A program made the translations under genes and the position numbers. A DNA stretch of 32,000 nucleotides from Sedimentisphaera cyanobacteriorum (GTDB taxonomy: Bacteria > Planctomycetota > Phycisphaerae > Sedimentisphaerales > Sedimentisphaeraceae), in NCBI RefSeq assembly GCF_001997385.1, contig NZ_CP019633.1:2820001-2852000 (forward strand), in the 5' to 3' direction. The notes beneath the pieces were generated by a model. It was given only the letters and a program-made list of their open reading frames with translations. It was not told the DNA's origin and made no database searches. Every line of letters begins with the position of its first letter. The first letter of the stretch is position 1. Below are positions 9,987 to 30,729 of the stretch, piece after piece.

Positions 9987-10066
9987 GGTTTTTGAAAAAA
10001 CGCAAAAATTAAATTTTCGAAATTCATTAATACGCTTTCAAACAATTGGCAAAAACGGAGTTTGTA

Positions 10067-12253
10067 ATGACAAATTTTGAAAGCTATGCAGAAGCACAGC
10101 AATCCTCACAAAAGTCAACCCTAAACGTTACCGAAAGGGTAACGGAAGCAGCAGGGCTGTTCCCTGATAAAACAGCAGTGAGCGACGAGAATCATTCGAT
10201 TATATTTTCAGAGCTGATATTGATTTCAGATGTCCTTGCTGAAAAGCTCCTTGCAAAAAACATCCAGCTTGAGCAGAAAGTTGGGATAAGCTGCGGAAAA
10301 AGCGTTGAGGCTGTCGTCTCTGCGTTTGCTGTGATGAAGGTTGGTGCGGCTTATGTGCCCCTTGATGCAGATTATCCGGACGAAAGGCTTATATACATAG
10401 CAGAAAATTCCTGTATGAATATTATATTCTGCGTTAAAGGCAATGCGCCAATGTGGGCTGAGGGGTTTGAAGTTATAGAGATAGATATTGAACAAATCCT
10501 CAAATCCGAACCTCCTGAAGAGCATATATCATTTAACTGTTCCCCAACAAGCCTTGCCTATTCAATGTACACCTCCGGCTCGACAGGCACACCCAAAGGT
10601 GTGGAAATAGAGCACAGAAATCTTAATCAGGAGATAGACTGGAATATAGAATTCCACAAACTTACCAGCAAAGACGTGGCAAGTCTTGTTTCGAGCTTCA
10701 GCTTTGATGTTTCAGTGTCTGAGATATGGAGCACTTTATCAGTTGGGGCGAGGCTTTGCATTGCTCCGCCTTCAGCAGTTTACGTGCCTCAAAATATGAT
10801 CGACTGGATGTGCCGAAAAGGTATAACCGTTGGCCTCGTTGGAACTCCCGTAGCAGAAAAGATTATTCGTATGCAGTGGCCTGATGAGTGTTCGCTTCGT
10901 ACTATGCGAACCATGGGCGACAGGCTCAGAGTAAGGCCTCTGCCGAATCTGCCGTTCAATCTGTACAATGAGTACGGCCCTACAGAATGCACAGTTACTG
11001 TTACAGCAGGGCTGGTCAGTTCGGAGGACGACGGCAAATACCCTCACATCGGAAGCGAAGTGGGCGACTGCGTGATACATATACTTGATGATGAGTTAAA
11101 CCCCGTAAAAGAAGGCGAAGAAGGCGAGCTCTGCATCAGCGGGGACTGCGTTGCAAGAGGGTATGCAGGTATGCCGGAGAAAACGGCCGAGGTATTCGTT
11201 CCCGACCCAATCATAAAGGGCAATCGGATGTACCGAACCGGCGATGTTGCAAAAAGACGGCCGGACGGGAATATCGATTATGTGGGAAGGCGGGATTTGC
11301 AGGTTCAGATCCGTGGGTTCAGGGTGGAGCTCAGCGAGATTGAAAAATTTGTGCTCGACAGCGAAAATGTAAACTCTGCTGCTGTGGTTGCTTCCGAAGA
11401 AGAGGATGGGATCAGGCTTTACTGCTTTGCTGAGCCGAAGGCAAAGCCGTTCAGCGTTGAATCACTTACTGATTTTCTCGCCTCAAAACTGCCCACCTAC
11501 ATGAGACCGAGCGGGTATTACGTTTTGGAGGAGATGCCGCTGAATGTAAACGGAAAAATTGACAGAAAGAAACTCTTCGCAGATGTTGTAGAAAACCGAA
11601 TTGAGGCGCATTCCAGAACAGATCAGATTGTAATGCCGCGAAACCCAATGGAAGAAGTGCTTTGGGAAACGTGGAAAAAAATCCTCCGAAGAGAAGACTT
11701 CGGAATATATGAAAACTTCTTCGACCTCGGCGGACATTCATTGATGGCTATTAAGATGGAAACGCTCCTAAGCAAACGCGGGCTTGCGCTCGACTTTGAA
11801 AAGGTGATTAAATATCCGGTGATCGCACAGCTGGCCGCCTTTCTGGAATTCAAGGTTGACGGGGCAGAAAATTCCGACGAAAAGTGCATTGTGTCGCTCA
11901 ACAAAGGCGAGAAAGGCAGGCCGCCGATTTATTTCCTGCATTCCACCAGCGGCGACATTCTGGCGTATGCAAATATAGTGCACGAACTCGGAGAAGACCA
12001 GCCCTGCTTCGGTTTTCAGTCTATTGGGCTTTGGCATATTGATCAGGCAGACAAAACAATCGAGCAGATGGCTGCCAGATATGTTAAGCTGCTCAATGAT
12101 ATCCAGCCGGAAGGAAAGTTTGCGCTTGTGGGGTGGTGCTTCGGCGGCTGGATCGCCTACGAGATGGCAAGAATATTCAAGAAGCAAGGCAGAAACGTGA
12201 GCATTTTAGCCCTCATAGACGCTCCCGCAAAACTTGCCGGCGGGAAAAAATGA
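10067..12253 (+). CDS. Stand-alone NRPS-like enzyme: adenylation domain, thiolation (PCP) domain, and the N-terminal two-thirds of a thioesterase domain (nucleophile and Asp)
   Basis: A-domain cores: MKVGAAYVPLD (A2), YTSGSTGTPKGV (A3), FDVSVSE (A4), NEYGPTE (A5), GELCISGDCVARGY (A6), YRTGD (A7), GRRDLQVQIRGFRVELSEIE (A8), NGKIDRKKL (A10). Carrier motif is FFDLGGHSLMAI (Ser codon 11738-11740). TE motif is GWCFGG (Cys codon 12137-12139), with Asp 27 residues later in LIDAP (12218-12220). No condensation domain is present. ATG 10067 with GGAG at 10056-10059 is preferred over the TTG at 10046. Confidence 0.9.
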   Translation: MTNFESYAEAQQSSQKSTLNVTERVTEAAGLFPDKTAVSDENHSIIFSELILISDVLAEKLLAKNIQLEQKVGISCGKSVEAVVSAFAVMKVGAAYVPLDADYPDERLIYIAENSCMNIIFCVKGNAPMWAEGFEVIEIDIEQILKSEPPEEHISFNCSPTSLAYSMYTSGSTGTPKGVEIEHRNLNQEIDWNIEFHKLTSKDVASLVSSFSFDVSVSEIWSTLSVGARLCIAPPSAVYVPQNMIDWMCRKGITVGLVGTPVAEKIIRMQWPDECSLRTMRTMGDRLRVRPLPNLPFNLYNEYGPTECTVTVTAGLVSSEDDGKYPHIGSEVGDCVIHILDDELNPVKEGEEGELCISGDCVARGYAGMPEKTAEVFVPDPIIKGNRMYRTGDVAKRRPDGNIDYVGRRDLQVQIRGFRVELSEIEKFVLDSENVNSAAVVASEEEDGIRLYCFAEPKAKPFSVESLTDFLASKLPTYMRPSGYYVLEEMPLNVNGKIDRKKLFADVVENRIEAHSRTDQIVMPRNPMEEVLWETWKKILRREDFGIYENFFDLGGHSLMAIKMETLLSKRGLALDFEKVIKYPVIAQLAAFLEFKVDGAENSDEKCIVSLNKGEKGRPPIYFLHSTSGDILAYANIVHELGEDQPCFGFQSIGLWHIDQADKTIEQMAARYVKLLNDIQPEGKFALVGWCFGGWIAYEMARIFKKQGRNVSILALIDAPAKLAGGKK

Positions 12254-12672
12254 GGCAGCATCTTACGGTTATAAAAAATCTTATCGCCCTCGGGCCAGCC
12301 GAGATGAGCAAAGAAATCATAGAGAGACTGAAAACTAAGGAATCAGACCTTGCAGATGATGTGATTGGCGCCCATTTCAACGAGCAGGACGAAGAATTCA
12401 AAAACAGATATGTTTCAAATCGAGCGGAAGTGTACGACTGTAATCTATCCGCCGCTTATGAGTATAAATCTGGAACTTATAAAGGCCAAGCCGTGCTGTT
12501 TAAGGCTATGGGCAGCGAACTTTGGAAACTCAGAGGCCCGAAACTCGGCTGGGAATTTGTGGTTGATGATTTGAAGCTCGAAGCTATACCGGGCGAACAT
12601 AAAGACCTGATGAAGGAAAATACGGAAATCGCTGTAAGACTCAGGAAAATGGTTGATCAGATTAAGGGCTGA
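12250..12672 (+). CDS. C-terminal third of the thioesterase domain (lid region plus catalytic His) as a separate ORF in the -1 frame
   Basis: ATG 12250-12252 overlaps the upstream TGA 12251-12253 (ATGA), immediately after the A6 run at 12245-12250. It contains the IPGEHKDLM His motif typical of type I TE domains (His codon 12598-12600). The portion of track ORF 12133..12672 upstream of 12250 is out-of-frame overlap with the first ORF. Confidence 0.7.
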   Translation: MRQHLTVIKNLIALGPAEMSKEIIERLKTKESDLADDVIGAHFNEQDEEFKNRYVSNRAEVYDCNLSAAYEYKSGTYKGQAVLFKAMGSELWKLRGPKLGWEFVVDDLKLEAIPGEHKDLMKENTEIAVRLRKMVDQIKG

Positions 12673-12705
12673 GAGCTCCTTCACGCAGCGTCCGAGGCCG
12701 GGTGA

Positions 12706-12872
12706 GTATGCACGGTTTGGCTCCTTATGCGAAAAAAGCCATCGCCACACAGCGGAGCAGCTCTTAGCTGCCCGCCAAAATCCTAATGGAAAAAGCAGCG
12801 TGGGTGAGAAGCGTACGCCTTGCGGCGTTACGCTTTGCGTCCCAGCATCTTCGCAAATCCAGTACTTCTGAT
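12706..12872. repeat. Element E, copy A (161-nt core, GTATGC on the left side only)
   Basis: GTATGC is at 12706-12711. The core at 12712-12872 is nearly identical to copies B and C except for a ~5-nt insertion near the right end. The left flank 12673-12705 is an RHS remnant (reverse strand LGRCVKEL) that abuts the TE stop codon. The right flank is unrelated sequence. Confidence 0.8.
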
Positions 12873-12933
12873 TTCGAATAAACTGCTATGGCTTAAAACC
12901 ACTAACAGTGTTTATTTTGATTCTCATTTGGTT

Positions 12934-13743
12934 TTATCTCAGCAATTTGCGGTTCGCTTCTTCTACCAGCAGTTTCATTTGCTTTATTGCAATCTCGTTT
13001 AGTCTTTCAAGTCTTTCATTTTGCGGCAGGCGTTCAGATATAAACAGAGCATTAAGATTTTCTAAATTTGCCAAACATACCAGCTGAATCACATTAGCAT
13101 TATCACGGATATCTCCCTTCTCATCCGGGTTGGCTTTCTGCCATTGTGCGGAGGTCATTCCGAAAAGGGCAACATTTAAAACATCTGCTTCGCTTGCATA
13201 TAGAAAAGAGGCCTGTTTCTTATCAATCTGCTGCGGTATCAGGTGCTCCTTAATCGCATCAGTATGTATGCGGTAGTTGATTTTAGTTAGGCTTCGTTTA
13301 ACCGACCAATCCAGCTCTTGCGTCTGGTTTTCTTTGAGCCGCTGAAATTCCTTCAGCAGATAAAATTTGAATTCTACCGACACCCAGGACGCAAATTCTA
13401 ACGCTATATCTGCGTGTGCAAATGTGCCGCCATATCTGCCCGGTTTGGACTGAAGGCCTATCGCATTTGTTGAATCTATCCATTTCTTGGGCGAAAGCAC
13501 GAAATGATTATAGCCGGCCTGATTCCTAAACTGGTCGAATTCGACCAGTTTGAAGTTTTGATTGTGGATTCGCTCCCACAGCCCAAGAAGCTCAATCGTA
13601 TTTTTGCTCCTCATCCAGTTTTTAATGATATCGGCTGGCGAGTCGGGGTTTTTGTATTTTGCAATATCTGTTATCGAGATGTAGTTCTCACGGTCAACAT
13701 TGTAAAGCATTATTTCACTGCCGGATACATTGATTTTCTTCAT
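12934..13743 (-). CDS. KilA-N domain-containing protein (DNA-binding, phage/mobile-element associated family)
   Basis: The translation closely matches my memory of the ~270-aa KilA-N family: ISITDIAKYKNPDSPADIIKNWMRSKNTIELLGLWE, GRYGGTFAHADIALEFASWVSVEFKFYLLKEFQRLKE, INYRIHTDAIKEHLIP. ATG is preceded by GGAGA. The gene is visibly AT-richer than the flanking genes. Confidence 0.85.
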   Translation of the reverse strand: MKKINVSGSEIMLYNVDRENYISITDIAKYKNPDSPADIIKNWMRSKNTIELLGLWERIHNQNFKLVEFDQFRNQAGYNHFVLSPKKWIDSTNAIGLQSKPGRYGGTFAHADIALEFASWVSVEFKFYLLKEFQRLKENQTQELDWSVKRSLTKINYRIHTDAIKEHLIPQQIDKKQASFLYASEADVLNVALFGMTSAQWQKANPDEKGDIRDNANVIQLVCLANLENLNALFISERLPQNERLERLNEIAIKQMKLLVEEANRKLLR

Positions 13744-13850
13744 AAATCATTCTCCATGCTTTTATTTTAAGCACGCTGAAACCTGCTATGAACCTCGTTC
13801 AAAAACCCGCTCAATATATAATATCGAAAAACAAAACGCAATGCAAAAAC

Positions 13851-14205
13851 ACCGCAATCAGCTCGCAAAACCCATTGCCGTAAACGTATTCATCCCCGCC
13901 GGCGAGCGTTTCGCCCGAATCGGTCGTGGTGAGCTACTTCACGCATCGTCCGAGGCCGGGTGAGTATGCACGGTTTGGCTCCTTATGCGAAAAAAGCCAT
14001 CGCCACACAGCGGAGCAGCTCTTAGCTGCCCGCCATAATCCTAATGGAAAAAGCAGCGTGGGTGAGAAGCGTACGCCTTGCGGCGTTACGCTGTGCGTCC
14101 CAGCATCTTCGCAAATCCGACTGATGTATGCCGGCGAGCCGGCCAAGCTTCCCACAATCCTGCGCCCCAACGCATCATATTTGTACTGAATCACTCATCC
14201 TCCAG
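13851..14205 (-). pseudogene. Degenerate RHS/YD-repeat fragment interrupted by element E copy B
   Basis: The reverse strand reads SGG*VIQYKYDALGRRIVGSLAGSPAY-[E]-SPGLGRCVK*LTTTDSGETLAGGDEYVYGNGFCELIAV. It has two in-frame stops and no start. It is homologous to the uninterrupted repeat at 16229-16390. Confidence 0.65.
13964..14131. repeat. Element E, copy B (156-nt core flanked by GTATGC direct repeats)
   Basis: GTATGC is at 13964-13969 and 14126-14131. The core is 13970-14125. Hairpins lie at 14069-14091 (GCGTACGCC-TTGC-GGCGtTACGC, a GCAA loop on the reverse strand) and 14012-14034. The terminal stem is CGGTTTG (13971-13977) with CAAAtCCG (14112-14119). Confidence 0.85.
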
Positions 14206-14412
14206 AAGATGCATTTTACTCTCTTTTATACATATCTCAACAGCTGCAATTTCATAATGAATATTAACAGCTGCTCCAATTTTTTCTTTCTTTACTCCAT
14301 TGCCTGCCGGGTTTCCAAATAAGTTCAAAACTTTCATTTTCTGACAAAGCTCTGAGCACCGGAAGAATAAAATCTTTTATTTTGTCTGCTGCTGATGGAA
14401 AAGATATCTCTT

Positions 14413-15204
14413 TTAGGCTATTTTTTGAGATAAAGCATCCCACTGGCTCTGTTTCAATTTGTCTTCATAGAATTCTCTGGTAAAAGATGTAGGCAGTTCT
14501 TCGGGGATTGCTGTACCTCTTCGCCTAAATGTGTTTTGAATCGCCTGAGCTAACAGTTTGCCGTCGAATTCAAATTTTCCGGCAAGCTGATACACATCGT
14601 AAAAATCTTTCATACGGCTGTTCGCAAACCCCAGAGTTACCATTGCTTCAATCTTTTCAGCTACTGCCAGCTCATACGAGTATGTCCTTAGCTTTGGTGC
14701 CGGCATATTAAGTATTGCAGGGAAAGCGGCCTGCTTTTCAGGCGGATAAACCTCATCACCAAACCCAATGTCTATCTGCATAAATTCTCCCGTACGCCCT
14801 ATTCTGTATTCAAGCTTAATCCTTACGCCGTCATACATATTATCTTCCCGAATTGCCTGCCCTCTCACAGATTCCGCTTTATATGTGATTCCGTCCTGCA
14901 CATCAGTTTCGATCCGGCAAATATTTCTGAAAACCTCCTCCAGCCGGGAAACATCAGGATTGCCAAACCCAAGCAAATCAAGATCTCTCGTTGGCCGGTA
15001 AGGATTATTCCCCCATACCCGAAAAAGCTGCGCTCCCTTGAGAACAAAATCGTTGGCATATTGAGAATTGCTCAATCGATAAAGAAAACGCTCTATTGCA
15101 TAATTTGTCAGCGTAAGGCCGCGATCTTCCCTTTGCATTTGCGAATAATTTTTTAGACGCTGTAAAATGGAATCAGCTATGTTTTTCTTTTCCCGATTGC
15201 TCAT
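14413..15204 (-). CDS. abiEii: AbiEii/AbiGii-family nucleotidyltransferase toxin (DUF1814), type IV toxin-antitoxin / abortive infection
   Basis: Typical AbiEii N-terminus: SILQRLKNYSQMQREDRGLTLTNYAIERFLYRLSNSQYANDFVLKGAQLF...RPTRDLDLLGFG. The ATG at 15204 overlaps the upstream stop as ATGA. Confidence 0.9.
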   Translation of the reverse strand: MSNREKKNIADSILQRLKNYSQMQREDRGLTLTNYAIERFLYRLSNSQYANDFVLKGAQLFRVWGNNPYRPTRDLDLLGFGNPDVSRLEEVFRNICRIETDVQDGITYKAESVRGQAIREDNMYDGVRIKLEYRIGRTGEFMQIDIGFGDEVYPPEKQAAFPAILNMPAPKLRTYSYELAVAEKIEAMVTLGFANSRMKDFYDVYQLAGKFEFDGKLLAQAIQNTFRRRGTAIPEELPTSFTREFYEDKLKQSQWDALSQKIA

Positions 15205-15809
15205 AATGCAGTAATGCTTTCAAGATATGGCTGAATCACATTGCTCACCCTGCACACTTTGGCGTATTTCCAAAGCTCATCCATTGTAAAATGCTTTTCC
15301 CGCCAGCCTTCTCTAAGGGCTTCCAGAGCTGTATCCAGCCCAATCTTGTTGCGATATTTAAAACAATCCGCCACCGTCTTTGCCGGCGAATAAACTCGCA
15401 CCTTAAGCTGATCTATCCGTTTCTCCTGTATTCCTTCGGTAAATGCCCTTTTCGAAAACCGCACATATCTCACCTTTGCAGAAGCTTTAATTTCGGGTTT
15501 GCGGGAACGATTTTCTATCGCAATCCAGACCTCAAATGGATTCTGTGTTGTAAATCCGTGAAGACGCAGGGCAGAAAGAAGGCAAATTACCCCTTTAGGC
15601 ACCTGTTTCGAAGCCTCAGCAATGCTCTGCATCGGCGAGTAATCATTGTTGGGCAGACTGTAGAGGCCGCGGGAAACCCTCTCCACAGTTCCTTGTACCG
15701 TAAGCTTTCGAAGATACTCCTTCGAGATGCCAAGCTCAACGATTTCTCCTGTTTTGAGCATTCCATACTGTCTGAGATGTTCAATTAGTTTTTGAGCCTT
15801 TATTCCCAT
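15201..15809 (-). CDS. abiEi: AbiEi-family antitoxin / transcriptional regulator (winged-helix N-terminus)
   Basis: Motifs: MLKTGEIVELGISKEYLRKLTVQGTVERVSRGLYSL, ICLLSALRLHGFTTQNPFEVWIAI, VYSPAKTVADCFKYRNKIGLDTALEALRE, IQPYLESI. Start chosen at ATG 15809 (MGIKAQKL...). The track start at 15860 lies inside the promoter palindrome. Confidence 0.85.
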   Translation of the reverse strand: MGIKAQKLIEHLRQYGMLKTGEIVELGISKEYLRKLTVQGTVERVSRGLYSLPNNDYSPMQSIAEASKQVPKGVICLLSALRLHGFTTQNPFEVWIAIENRSRKPEIKASAKVRYVRFSKRAFTEGIQEKRIDQLKVRVYSPAKTVADCFKYRNKIGLDTALEALREGWREKHFTMDELWKYAKVCRVSNVIQPYLESITAL

Positions 15810-15821
15810 TTGCAATACCTT

Positions 15822-15869
15822 GTTGACTAAATGTCCATATATATTAACATATATCAACACTTAGTCAAC
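15822..15869 (-). promoter_or_regulatory. Promoter embedded in a 9-bp inverted repeat; candidate AbiEi operator
   Basis: GTTGACTAA (15822-15830) and TTAGTCAAC (15861-15869) are perfect inverted repeats. On the reverse strand they frame TTGACT, 16 nt, then TAATAT, directly upstream of the abiEi ATG. Confidence 0.5.
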
Positions 15870-16545
15870 TTGATTTTGACATCCCCGCCGCGAGCGTTTC
15901 GCCCGAATCGGTCGTGGTGAGCTCCTTCACGCAGCGGCCGAGGCCGGGCGAGTATGCGCGATTTGGCTCCTTTTGCGAAAAAAGCCATCGCCACACAGCG
16001 GAGCAGCTCTTAGCTGCCCGCCAAAATCCTAATGGAAAAAGCAGCGTGGGTGAGAAGCGTACGCCTTGCGGCGTTACGCTGTGCGTCCCAGCATCTTCGC
16101 AAATCCGGCTTATGTATGCTGGCGAGCCGGCCAAGCATACCACACTGCCCAGCGCGTCGGTGAGGGCGTATTCCACGCCGCCAGAAGCATCGCAAACCGA
16201 AATCAGCTCAGCGAAACCATTGCCGTAAACGTATTCATCCCCGGCGGCGAGCGTTTCGCCCGAATCGGTGGTGGTTAGCTCCTTCACGCAGCGGCCGAGC
16301 GGGTCGTACAGGCAGAACGTTTCCTCGCCGCCCGAGCTTCTCACAACCCTGCGCCCCAACGCATGGTATTTGTATTCGATCACTTGTCCTCCCGATTCAA
16401 CTGAGACCAACGCACCTCCGGCAGAATATTCATACTTATTCCCGCCGTCATAAATCATATTGCCTGCATTATCATACTGGATTTCGGAATCGCTTTCAAG
16501 AGAATTCAACTCGGCGATTTCTGAAACGAGAGGGTTTTTAGCTGA
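15865..16545 (-). pseudogene. Orphan RHS/YD-repeat fragment (no N-terminus, no toxin tip) carrying element E copy C in frame
   Basis: The reverse strand reads YDNAGNMIYDGGNKYEYSAGG...VIEYKYHALGRRVVRSSGGEETFCLYDPLGRCVKELTTTDSGETLAAGDEYVYGNGFAELISV...YALTDALGSVVCLAGSPAY-[E]-SPGLGRCVKELTTTDSGETLAAG, then MSKSS*. The frame opens right after a stop near 16546 and has no credible start. The LGRCVKELTTTDSGETLAAG segment occurs twice. Confidence 0.65.
15952..16119. repeat. Element E, copy C (156-nt core flanked by GTATGC direct repeats)
   Basis: GTATGC is at 15952-15957 and 16114-16119. The core 15958-16113 is exactly 156 nt and differs from copy B by about six substitutions by eye. Confidence 0.85.
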
Positions 16546-16661
16546 TTAGATTTTCAGCCACTGAGAAACGCTAAGAAGCACTAAGGGGATAATTTTAGAC
16601 AGAATCTTTTTAGTTCCAGGCAATGATAAGGGGAAAGTTTTTCTCCTGCAGCTGCCGCTGC

Positions 16662-16698
16662 CTCTCCGCCTGCGGCGGACAGGCTCAATGTTAAACAT
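16662..16698. repeat. 37-nt direct repeat, left copy (contains the TCCGCC-TGC-GGCGGA hairpin)
   Basis: CTCTCCGCCTGCGGCGGACAGGCTCAATGTTAAACAT recurs at 17107-17144 with one extra T. Confidence 0.8.
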
Positions 16699-16703
16699 CC
16701 CCC

Positions 16704-16831
16704 GTACTACAGCGGAGTCCGCCTGCGGCGGACCCGCTAGGCATTCTTTTAGAATAGATTTTTCGCTTAACGCCGGCTCTTCACGTTTCGCTATCCTAGC
16801 GGGTCCGCCACGGCGAACACCGCTGTACGAC
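16704..16831. repeat. R2 hairpin element: ~37-nt imperfect inverted repeats around a ~53-nt spacer (MITE/REP-like)
   Basis: The 5' arm is GTACTACAGCGGAGTCCGCCTGCGGCGGACCCGCTAGG (16704-16741). The 3' arm is CCTAGCGGGTCCGCCACGGCGAACACCGCTGTACGAC (16795-16831). The spacer contains CTCTTCACGTTTCGCT, which is shared with the element at 30455-30569. Confidence 0.75.
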
Positions 16832-17106
16832 GCTGCTTTATTAAGCAGCGAACCGCTGGCTCAGTCCGTAAATGCTGCGGCCAGCCTATAGTAGATACTG
16901 GCTGTCCGCTTATTTCACTGCCTGCGGCGGGACGGAATAAGTGGGCAGCAAACAGAGCGGAAACGGAGGCGAGATTTTTTAGACGGGATTTATAGGAGTA
17001 ACATGAAAAATATTTGGTACTGAAAAGTTGGATAGAAGTTTTTTCAGCCGCTGATCTGCTCTGATTTTTCACTAATATATTATATCTTCTCCGATAACTC
17101 CGCTAA

Positions 17107-17144
17107 CTCTCCGCCTGCGGCGGACAGGCTCAATGTTTAACATT
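17107..17144. repeat. 37-nt direct repeat, right copy
   Basis: CTCTCCGCCTGCGGCGGACAGGCTCAATGTTTAACAT matches 16662-16698. Confidence 0.8.
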
Positions 17145-17287
17145 CCTTTTAAATCGGTGGTTAAATTATTCTTAATTGAGGCGGTCTTGCTCATCACCCG
17201 CCGGAGAGCTGCCCCGCAATTTGATATTCTCCGCCAATGCGGGGGCTGAAGTTTTTACACAGAGATATCGGAGGAAGCGGAGGGGAG

Positions 17288-30397: not shown

Positions 30398-30426
30398 AGT
30401 ACCGCCCGCTGTGGCGGACCCGCTAA
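30398..30426. repeat. Solo arm related to the R2 inverted repeats
   Basis: AGTACCGCCCGCTGTGGCGGACCCGCTAA resembles the reverse complement of the 3' arm at 16795-16831. Confidence 0.6.
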
Positions 30427-30454
30427 TTATTCATTGCGAAATAATTTCACGCAC

Positions 30455-30569
30455 CACAGCGGAGCGACGCAAGTCGCCCGCTAAGCTTACGCTCCGAAAA
30501 GATTTCCCGTGTGCCGTCGGTTCTTCACGTTTCGCTTCGTTAGCGGGGCACTTGCGTGCCTCCGCTGTG
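30455..30569. repeat. R2 hairpin element, second copy (different arm sequence, same architecture and spacer motif)
   Basis: The 5' arm is CACAGCGGAGCGACGCAAGTCGCCCGCTAAGC (30455-30486). The 3' arm is CGTTAGCGGGGCACTTGCGTGCCTCCGCTGTG (30538-30569). The spacer contains GTTCTTCACGTTTCGCT. Confidence 0.75.
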
Positions 30570-30729
30570 TCCCCCCGGTTCTTCAGCCATTCCCTCCATT
30601 CTTCCGCTGTTCGTATCCATGAAATCCTCATATACTGGGGACTAATCACGACTGAGCACGAAAAAACACTTGAAGAGCCTCGCAAAATTAAAAAATCTCA
30701 TCTTTTCGCTGTTTTAACAGCTTTTAAAC

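Follow-up and report, generated by a model that had tools for sequence, protein, structure and literature searches.

What is the short, hairpin-rich sequence that stands three times, in frame, within rhs (YD-repeat) fragments of the planctomycete Sedimentisphaera cyanobacteriorum, and why is it there in triplicate? The question arises from a 32,000-nt stretch of contig NZ_CP019633.1 (assembly GCF_001997385.1, positions 2,820,001 to 2,852,000), hereafter the window, in which the RHS sense is the minus strand. A first-pass annotation had described near-identical elements at 12712-12872, 13970-14125 and 15958-16113 (here copies A, B and C), two of them bounded on both sides by the hexamer GTATGC (13964-13969/14126-14131 in copy B and 15952-15957/16114-16119 in copy C), and had taken them for in-frame insertions of an element like a miniature inverted-repeat transposable element (MITE) or a Rickettsia palindromic element (RPE), or of a non-coding RNA. 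The three copies and the hexamers are present as described, and the proposed 156-nt core is in frame with the minus-strand YD-repeat open reading frames (ORFs), but the truly foreign segment is 141 nt long (13979-14119 in copy B); we call it X. The explanation that we favour, at about even confidence, is that X is foreign DNA that on a single occasion replaced part of an orphan rhs fragment and was later triplicated within the homology arm of a small stack of defence cassettes.

The limits of X were set by comparison with a paralogue. A protein search with the RHS part of the ORF returned only two relatives, both fragments: P0002 (AQQ09696.1), an rhs fragment of S. cyanobacteriorum about 700 genes away from the window locus, and P0003, a fragment from S. 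salicampi. Compared as a protein sequence, P0002 runs ...GGVEYALTDALGSVVCLAGSPAYIS-PVRYDAYGNAGDDTPDMPFGFAGMKSEPAADICLT-PNRAYSPGLGR-WLSPDPTQ..., and copy C runs ...GGVEYALTDALGSVVCLAGSPAYIS-RICEDAGTHSVTPQGVRFSPTLLFPLGFWRAAKSCSAVWRWLFSQKE-PNRAYSPGLGR-CVKELTTT...; the stretch VEYALTDALGSVVCLAGSPAYIS precedes PVRYDAYGNAGDDTPDMPFGFAGMKSEPAADICLT in the former and X in the latter. Between LAGSPAYIS and PNRAYSPGLGR, P0002 has 35 canonical Rhs-core codons (PVRYDAYGN...ICLT), and its residues 77-127 match TIGR03696 (Rhs_assc_core) with an E value of 8e-9, whereas the window copies have 47 foreign codons. Because P0002 carries canonical codons exactly where X stands, the comparison shows X to have replaced 105 nt (35 host codons) rather than to have been inserted. 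A simple insertion into continuous host sequence is thus refuted, and the empty site proposed for it, GSPAYSPGLGRC, was not found: the existing site is filled with canonical Rhs-core sequence.

The same comparison removes the supposed target-site duplication. Read in the RHS sense, both hexamers are GCATAC and encode Ala-Tyr in native RHS sequence; P0002 likewise encodes SPAYIS and PNRAYSPG, and copy A has a single hexamer, its opposite flank being cassette DNA. The terminal stem said to join the two ends, CGGTTTG with CAAAtCCG, does pair, but its CAAACCG arm lies in the native codons for Pro-Asn-Arg. The inverted ends of the X region amount to imperfect pairings of 6-8 bp, namely this one and TGCGAA/TTCGCA.

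X is a discrete stretch distinct from RHS sequence, as the first-pass annotation had held. It is open in the RHS frame over all 47 codons in each of the three copies, as an RPE would be, and one antisense frame is also free of stops across the element. X shows no significant similarity to the replaced peptide or to RHS DNA and no coding-type GC periodicity, in agreement with the earlier view that it is not RHS coding sequence. A derivation of X from diverged or frame-shifted RHS was rejected: the peptides of its three sense frames do not align significantly with the replaced segment, its DNA gives no significant alignment to RHS on either strand, and there was no hidden Markov model match in six frames. 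At E<=10, the three sense frames had no Pfam or NCBIfam match and the three antisense frames no Pfam match.

Searches for relatives of X beyond this locus were negative throughout. A word-index search of 5.8 billion proteins with the RHS-frame peptide matched nothing but two ORFs of the window itself, WP_123785192.1 (86 aa, from copy B) and AQQ10405.1 (214 aa, from copy C); an exhaustive phmmer search of 1.84 billion representatives added only spurious tandem-repeat proteins, four hits that were rejected as repeats of an MBG-domain 'AGTYTITPQGV' unit and W-rich repeats with summed scores. No match was found by exact 23-mer in one genome per GTDB species (a set that does not include S. cyanobacteriorum itself), by 21-mer and six peptide patterns in the JGI metagenomes, or in IMG/VR viral contigs, plasmids and phages. 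The window as a whole had no Rfam match at gathering score, and nothing overlapped the element at E<=10 in 12600-16450; no tRNA or transfer-messenger RNA genes were found. A relationship to the local palindromic repeats R1 and R2 was considered on account of a shared 11-mer and a 32-nt alignment and was rejected, the R2 score being no outlier in a 330-window tiling; R1 and R2 are single long hairpins, unlike X. With native GTATGC, 35 codons replaced, a peptide found in no other protein and no Rfam match, the proposed identity as a MITE, RPE or non-coding RNA was not supported.

The triplication is accounted for by the surroundings of X. Read in the RHS sense, from 16520 to 12670, the island comprises an rhs head, X copy C, an rhs tail, the AbiEi/AbiEii genes, a short rhs head, X copy B, an rhs tail with a TAG stop, a gene for a KilA-N protein, X copy A and a short rhs tail, which adjoins the stop codon of a convergent thioesterase ORF. 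All X copies fall within one 262-nt repeat family, an rhs block duplicated over about 200-260 nt; the RHS sequence in common extends to both sides of X in B and C and to one side only in A. Every accessible copy lies in this same duplicated block, an outcome that the first-pass annotation had itself named as speaking against its reading, and no further copy occurs in the remaining 31 kb of the window or at the homologous locus of S. salicampi. The 32-kb window contains no rhs gene, only fragments, and no full-length rhs stands at the head of the array; the head fragment, which holds the uninterrupted YD repeat at 16229-16390, is annotated jointly with X copy C as AQQ10405.1. The intervening cassettes are anti-phage genes: the KilA-N protein matches PADLOC PDC-S22 (E 2e-126), and AbiEi and AbiEii were confirmed.

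The blocks themselves carry traces of their assembly. Cassette junctions fall at differing RHS positions, block B has a head derived from block C by deletion, with YKYDALGRR joined to ...LAGSPAYIS at the ALG motif, and past X every block loops from ...YSPGLGR back into the internal repeat ...CVKELTTTDSGE. Together, the ALG fusion in block B and the LGR loop-back in all blocks point to mosaics formed by recombination between short YD motifs.

A homologous defence/rhs stack occurs in S. salicampi (CP021023.1, 10011-15614; locus L001) in a chromosomal neighbourhood that differs from that of window 12670-16520, and X is absent from it. The locus opens with the same rhs head, AELNSLESDSEIQYD..., and closes with a second rhs fragment; its 5.2-kb stack, enclosed between 134-nt RHS direct repeats of 99% identity, comprises a KilA-N remnant, a DUF3800 gene, a 174-aa ORF, an rhs-tail remnant, AbiEi/AbiEii, a 147-aa ORF and a 379-aa ORF. 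The window's AbiE cassette is 92% identical to L001 12031-13722, and the tail-to-cassette junction is identical in the two loci; the RHS/KilA-N junction of L001 is a microhomology deletion. Of the 379-aa gene, the window retains the five initial codons, at 14225-14240. The cyclic order RHS, AbiE, RHS, KilA-N, RHS is therefore common to both species. No parent rhs gene was found near the stack of either species.

Two side observations concern this comparison. In L001, the 147-aa gene lies between 74-nt direct repeats, which take in a shared start (MY[KN]..). Upstream of the rhs head, L001 9995-10011 reads GTGGCTGAAC-AAATCGCCGAG, the start of an annotated 94-aa ORF (MAEQIAEL...); in window 16521-16563, the GTGGCTGAAC and AAATCGCCGAG halves are split by about 32 extra nucleotides that contain a stop, so that the head fragment has lost its start-codon context in S. 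cyanobacteriorum.

Sequence divergence among the blocks is uneven. When copies B and C are compared, 2 of the 141 positions of X are different, against 9 of 103 in the flanks (p 0.01), making X about 6-fold less diverged. The additional differences are restricted to 13 nt and 33 nt directly beside X, the pieces homologous to P0002 (..AYIS and PNRAYSPGLGR, the latter a divergent but synonymous patch between copies), and identity between the blocks is high again farther out. Of the 12 sites that vary among the three blocks, 11 are third positions of RHS-frame codons (p 5e-5); the antisense frame that is open has the same third positions, so the bias cannot be assigned to a strand. Changes in the flanks comprise eight synonymous and one nonsense, whereas the three within X, all at third positions, are non-synonymous (H/Q, L/F and H/Q; p 0.018 for the contrast with the flanks).

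X also folds better than its surroundings. The fold z-score of the 168-nt stretch is -3.7 in the sense and -2.8 in the antisense orientation, better than chance, and those of the 141-nt core are about -3.0 and -4.0; among other local 141-nt strand-windows (n = 182), 2.2% reach -2.8 and 0.5% reach -3.5, and four neighbouring RHS windows range from -1.3 to +1.0. Both internal hairpins that had been pointed out are present, at 14012-14034 and, GCAA-capped and in all copies, at 14069-14091; the fold of X includes a 10-bp stem with this GNRA loop. The suggested covariation check yielded nothing: RNAalifold on the three copies, which at about 98% identity give no power, predicted 50 pairs with 0 compensatory changes, none being possible among copies so alike.

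We propose the following course of events. A lineage-specific 141-nt piece of non-RHS DNA would have replaced, once and in frame, 35 core-end codons of an already orphaned rhs fragment; it may derive from filler DNA or be a scar left behind when a cassette or palindromic element was lost. The rhs block with X would then have served as the repeated homology arm between the AbiEi/AbiEii and KilA-N/PDC-S22 cassettes, and X would be present threefold because the block that carries it was repeated between stacked cassettes. Stacking could have proceeded by homologous, Campbell-type or unequal recombination between short YD motifs (...ALGR... and ...LGR|CVKEL). X would hitch-hike and require no function of its own; recent copying or concerted evolution among the three blocks would explain its uniformity. 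The synonymous differences beside X probably came in through gene conversion, with X-less paralogues such as P0002 as donors and divergence confined to these pieces because conversion tracts would stop at the heterology between X and the canonical segment and at the LGR|CVKEL junction.

Several observations weigh against this explanation. X folds better than about 98% of local windows, and its G-U pairs favour the sense strand; all three of its substitutions are at third codon positions (p 0.04); and by a hand estimate, which is not a tool result, 47 stop-free codons in frame have a likelihood of only about 5% in random filler. Constraint at the nucleotide level would also account for the low divergence of X. 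The left breakpoint of copy A lies within 0-8 nt of the left boundary of X, which hints that the boundary is prone to recombination, and the proposed paralogue conversion draws on P0002 protein rather than DNA.

Three other readings of X were weighed. It could be what is left of a small palindromic mobile element, non-autonomous and MITE-, RPE- or palindrome-associated transposable element (PATE)-like, whose arrival cost the target 105 nt and preceded the triplication of the block; more copies would then be expected at other sites of the S. cyanobacteriorum genome. A length of 141-156 nt, several hairpins and weak inverted ends would suit such an origin, as would the open frame, which is shared with RPEs (PMC10969869), the boundaries that are sharp against both P0002 and copy A, and the occurrence of other palindromic repeat families in the genus. 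The reading, together with the copies it implies, is nevertheless unlikely: the hexamers are host codons and there is no target-site duplication, part of the host's coding sequence has been lost and not just interrupted, the terminal stem has one native arm (PNR), the resemblance to R2 is no outlier, and neither the peptide nor the DNA recurs in other proteins, L001, the rest of the window, other species, metagenomes or viral contigs. X could alternatively be a functional structured nucleic acid, either an RNA cotranscribed with the cassettes or a single-stranded or cruciform DNA signal for recombination or cassette capture. Folding within the top 0.5-2% of local windows, the GNRA stem with its sense-specific G-U pairs, the 6-fold lower divergence, the placement of the three substitutions in predicted loops or at a helix end and the single X copy upstream of each cassette all speak for it. 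The homologous S. salicampi island, however, works without X, the cassettes have promoter-like regions of their own, there are no Rfam relatives, compensatory pairs or attC core sites, and recent copying explains the low divergence equally well. We consider such a function improbable, and likewise hold out little hope for its fullest form, a new hairpin-rich, nucleotide-constrained element of rhs 'handle' fragments, acting as an RNA with defence cassettes or as a cassette-capture DNA signal, that stays near-invariant amid synonymous drift of its flanks.

The third reading takes X as genuine coding sequence: a highly divergent Rhs core-end allele, recombined from an unsampled rhs gene and translated in the donor's RHS protein. 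The uninterrupted frame, the excess of third-position changes in the blocks and in X, a GC content equal to that of the RHS flanks and a faint collinear likeness to the replaced peptide (DA, G, P.GF, KS) are what such an allele would show. That likeness is not significant in any frame, however, neither Rhs_assc_core nor any other model matches, and no homologue exists among the 1.84 billion representative proteins. GC at the three codon positions of X is flat (0.53/0.60/0.55, vs 0.60/0.49/0.71 in the rhs head), its changes are non-synonymous where those of the flanks are synonymous, an abundance of Trp and Cys sets its peptide apart from YD repeats, and the present X-bearing ORFs lack start codons, with a stop in block B. 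A coding origin is in our judgement quite improbable, and we retain the one-off foreign replacement, multiplied with its block, as the favoured explanation.

Table 1. Features of the rhs/defence island, in window coordinates.
Feature	Position	Strand	Remarks
X, copy A	12721..12861	-	upstream flank (RHS sense) is cassette DNA, not RHS
X, copy B	13979..14119	-	47 codons, RICEDAGTHSVTPQGVRFSPTLLFPLGLWRAAKSCSAVWRWLFSHKE in RHS frame; limits set against paralogue P0002
X, copy C	15967..16107	-	differs from copy B at 2/141 positions
PNRAYSPGLGR piece, copy B	13946..13978	-	native Rhs core-end piece downstream of X; includes 'right' GCATAC; same 11 residues in P0002
PNRAYSPGLGR piece, copy C	15934..15966	-	
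PNRAYSPGLGR piece, copy A	12688..12720	-	
LAGSPAYIS piece, copy B	14120..14146	-	native RHS piece upstream of X; includes 'left' GCATAC; identical residues in P0002
LAGSPAYIS piece, copy C	16108..16134	-	piece absent from copy A
rhs tail of block B	13851..13945	-	CVK*LTTTDSGETLAGGDEYVYGNGFCELIAV, in-frame TAG stop
Orphan rhs head fragment	16120..16520	-	YD repeats, no ATG, stop just upstream; homologous to S. salicampi fragment P0003
AbiE cassette	14413..15860	-	AbiEi 15201-15860, AbiEii 14413-15204; between blocks C and B
KilA-N domain protein	12934..13743	-	PADLOC candidate defence gene PDC-S22; cassette between blocks B and A

Both cassettes come with a promoter-like region of their own, which for AbiE is the palindromic region 15822-15869. 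The palindrome there, TTGACTAAGTG ... CATTTAGTCAA, overlaps a promoter-like TTGACT-16-TAATAT just upstream of abiEi and has a conserved counterpart in S. salicampi; its probable role is that of an autoregulatory operator for AbiEi. The KilA-N protein has more than 8000 homologues at about 70-78% identity in Desulfobacterales, Bacteroidota, Cloacimonadota, Victivallales and others. Among three homologue contexts that were checked (L003-L005), two carry restriction-modification genes, with the homologue right after hsdM, and in one of those contexts, represented by two near-identical assemblies, hsdS lies downstream. The protein looks like a very mobile single-gene defence cassette. A travelling unit of KilA-N and X was rejected, neither RHS sequence nor X being present near the homologues in these three contexts.

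The remaining neighbours in the window are housekeeping and carbohydrate-active enzyme genes, among them a thioesterase/non-ribosomal peptide synthetase (NRPS)-like gene, phosphoenolpyruvate carboxykinase, a sulfatase, GH43, RluD and gltB. The NRPS-like ORF (adenylation, peptidyl carrier protein and thioesterase domains; 10046-12253, plus strand) overlaps the next ORF (12133-12672, plus strand) by 120 nt, and its Thioesterase Pfam match ends at profile position 105 of 226, which suggests that a frameshift splits the thioesterase domain within 10046-12672; it is the stop codon of the second of these ORFs that the rhs island adjoins. GC-rich, nested palindromic intergenic repeat families resembling repetitive extragenic palindromic (REP) sequences occur at 16655-16960, 17100-17146 and 30405-30575, and at 9898-9930 of L001. 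They include a pair of long hairpins, each some 120 nt in length, whose approximate positions are 16708-16826 and 30455-30569 and whose DNA fold z-scores are -6.6 to -8.2 and -3.4 to -4.2; the two have CACAGCGGAG/CCCGCTA stems and a conserved loop ..TTCTTCACGTTTCGCT.. in common. A 47-nt repeat, CCGC..CTCCGCCTGCGGCGGACAGGCTCAATGTT, stands at 16655 and 17100 and has a relative in S. salicampi; the stretch 16901-17041 is also strongly structured (z -6.3). None of the intergenic palindromic repeats of the window or L001 had an Rfam match.

Among known systems, the closest parallels are the orphan rhs/cdiA-CT 'silent cassette' arrays, promoter-less core fragments with direct repeats for which recombination at core motifs has been proposed as the driver (Poole et al. 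2011, PMC3150448). Here, too, promoter-less rhs core fragments of varying length stand in direct orientation, with direct repeats in blocks A, B and C and the head fragment as well as in the 134-nt repeats of S. salicampi, and modules are rearranged between relatives, with recombination at core motifs as the proposed driver. The window differs in having no full-length rhs and no close full-length paralogue that could be found; in modules that are self-contained defence genes (AbiE, KilA-N/PDC-S22 and, in S. salicampi, DUF3800) instead of Rhs-CT toxin/immunity pairs; in fragments that loop into a YD repeat (LGR|CVKEL) and do not end at PxxxxDPxGL with a toxin domain; and in a core end that bears the foreign segment X. 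The locus is best read as a decayed orphan-rhs array.

Mobile and integron-borne repeats offer looser parallels. Like Rickettsia RPEs, X is about 150 nt long, forms hairpins, keeps the frame of its ORF and encodes a peptide unrelated to the host protein; RPEs, however, are simple insertions found by the dozen in unrelated genes with the same peptide (PMC10969869), whereas X stands in place of 35 lost host codons, its peptide was found in no other protein and the copies share one duplicated context. X is small and structured with weak inverted ends, as are classical MITEs (Correia/NEMIS, ERIC), but has no target-site duplication, demonstrated dispersed copies or known parent insertion sequence, and one 'inverted end' lies in host codons. 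A one-orientation array of small cassettes, including a toxin-antitoxin pair, with a structured repeat of similar size (about 60-140 nt) also recalls integron cassettes with attC. X as an attC site was rejected: there are 0 RYYYAAC/GTTRRRY core matches on either strand of 12600-16600, where 0.9 would be expected by chance, no integrase domain was found among the 20 largest window ORFs, cassette junctions vary in their RHS positions and the S. salicampi array does not have this repeat at all.

The locus is a cautionary case: what looked like an in-frame insertion flanked by a target-site duplication did not survive comparison with a paralogue. X itself is an orphan sequence, unusually well folded and conserved for its context, and would matter only if more copies or a transcript were to appear. 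A second point of modest interest concerns its carrier: in two Sedimentisphaera species, rhs fragments without a parent gene constitute the repeated homology between stacked anti-phage cassettes, extending the 'orphan module' logic of polymorphic-toxin loci to defence genes.

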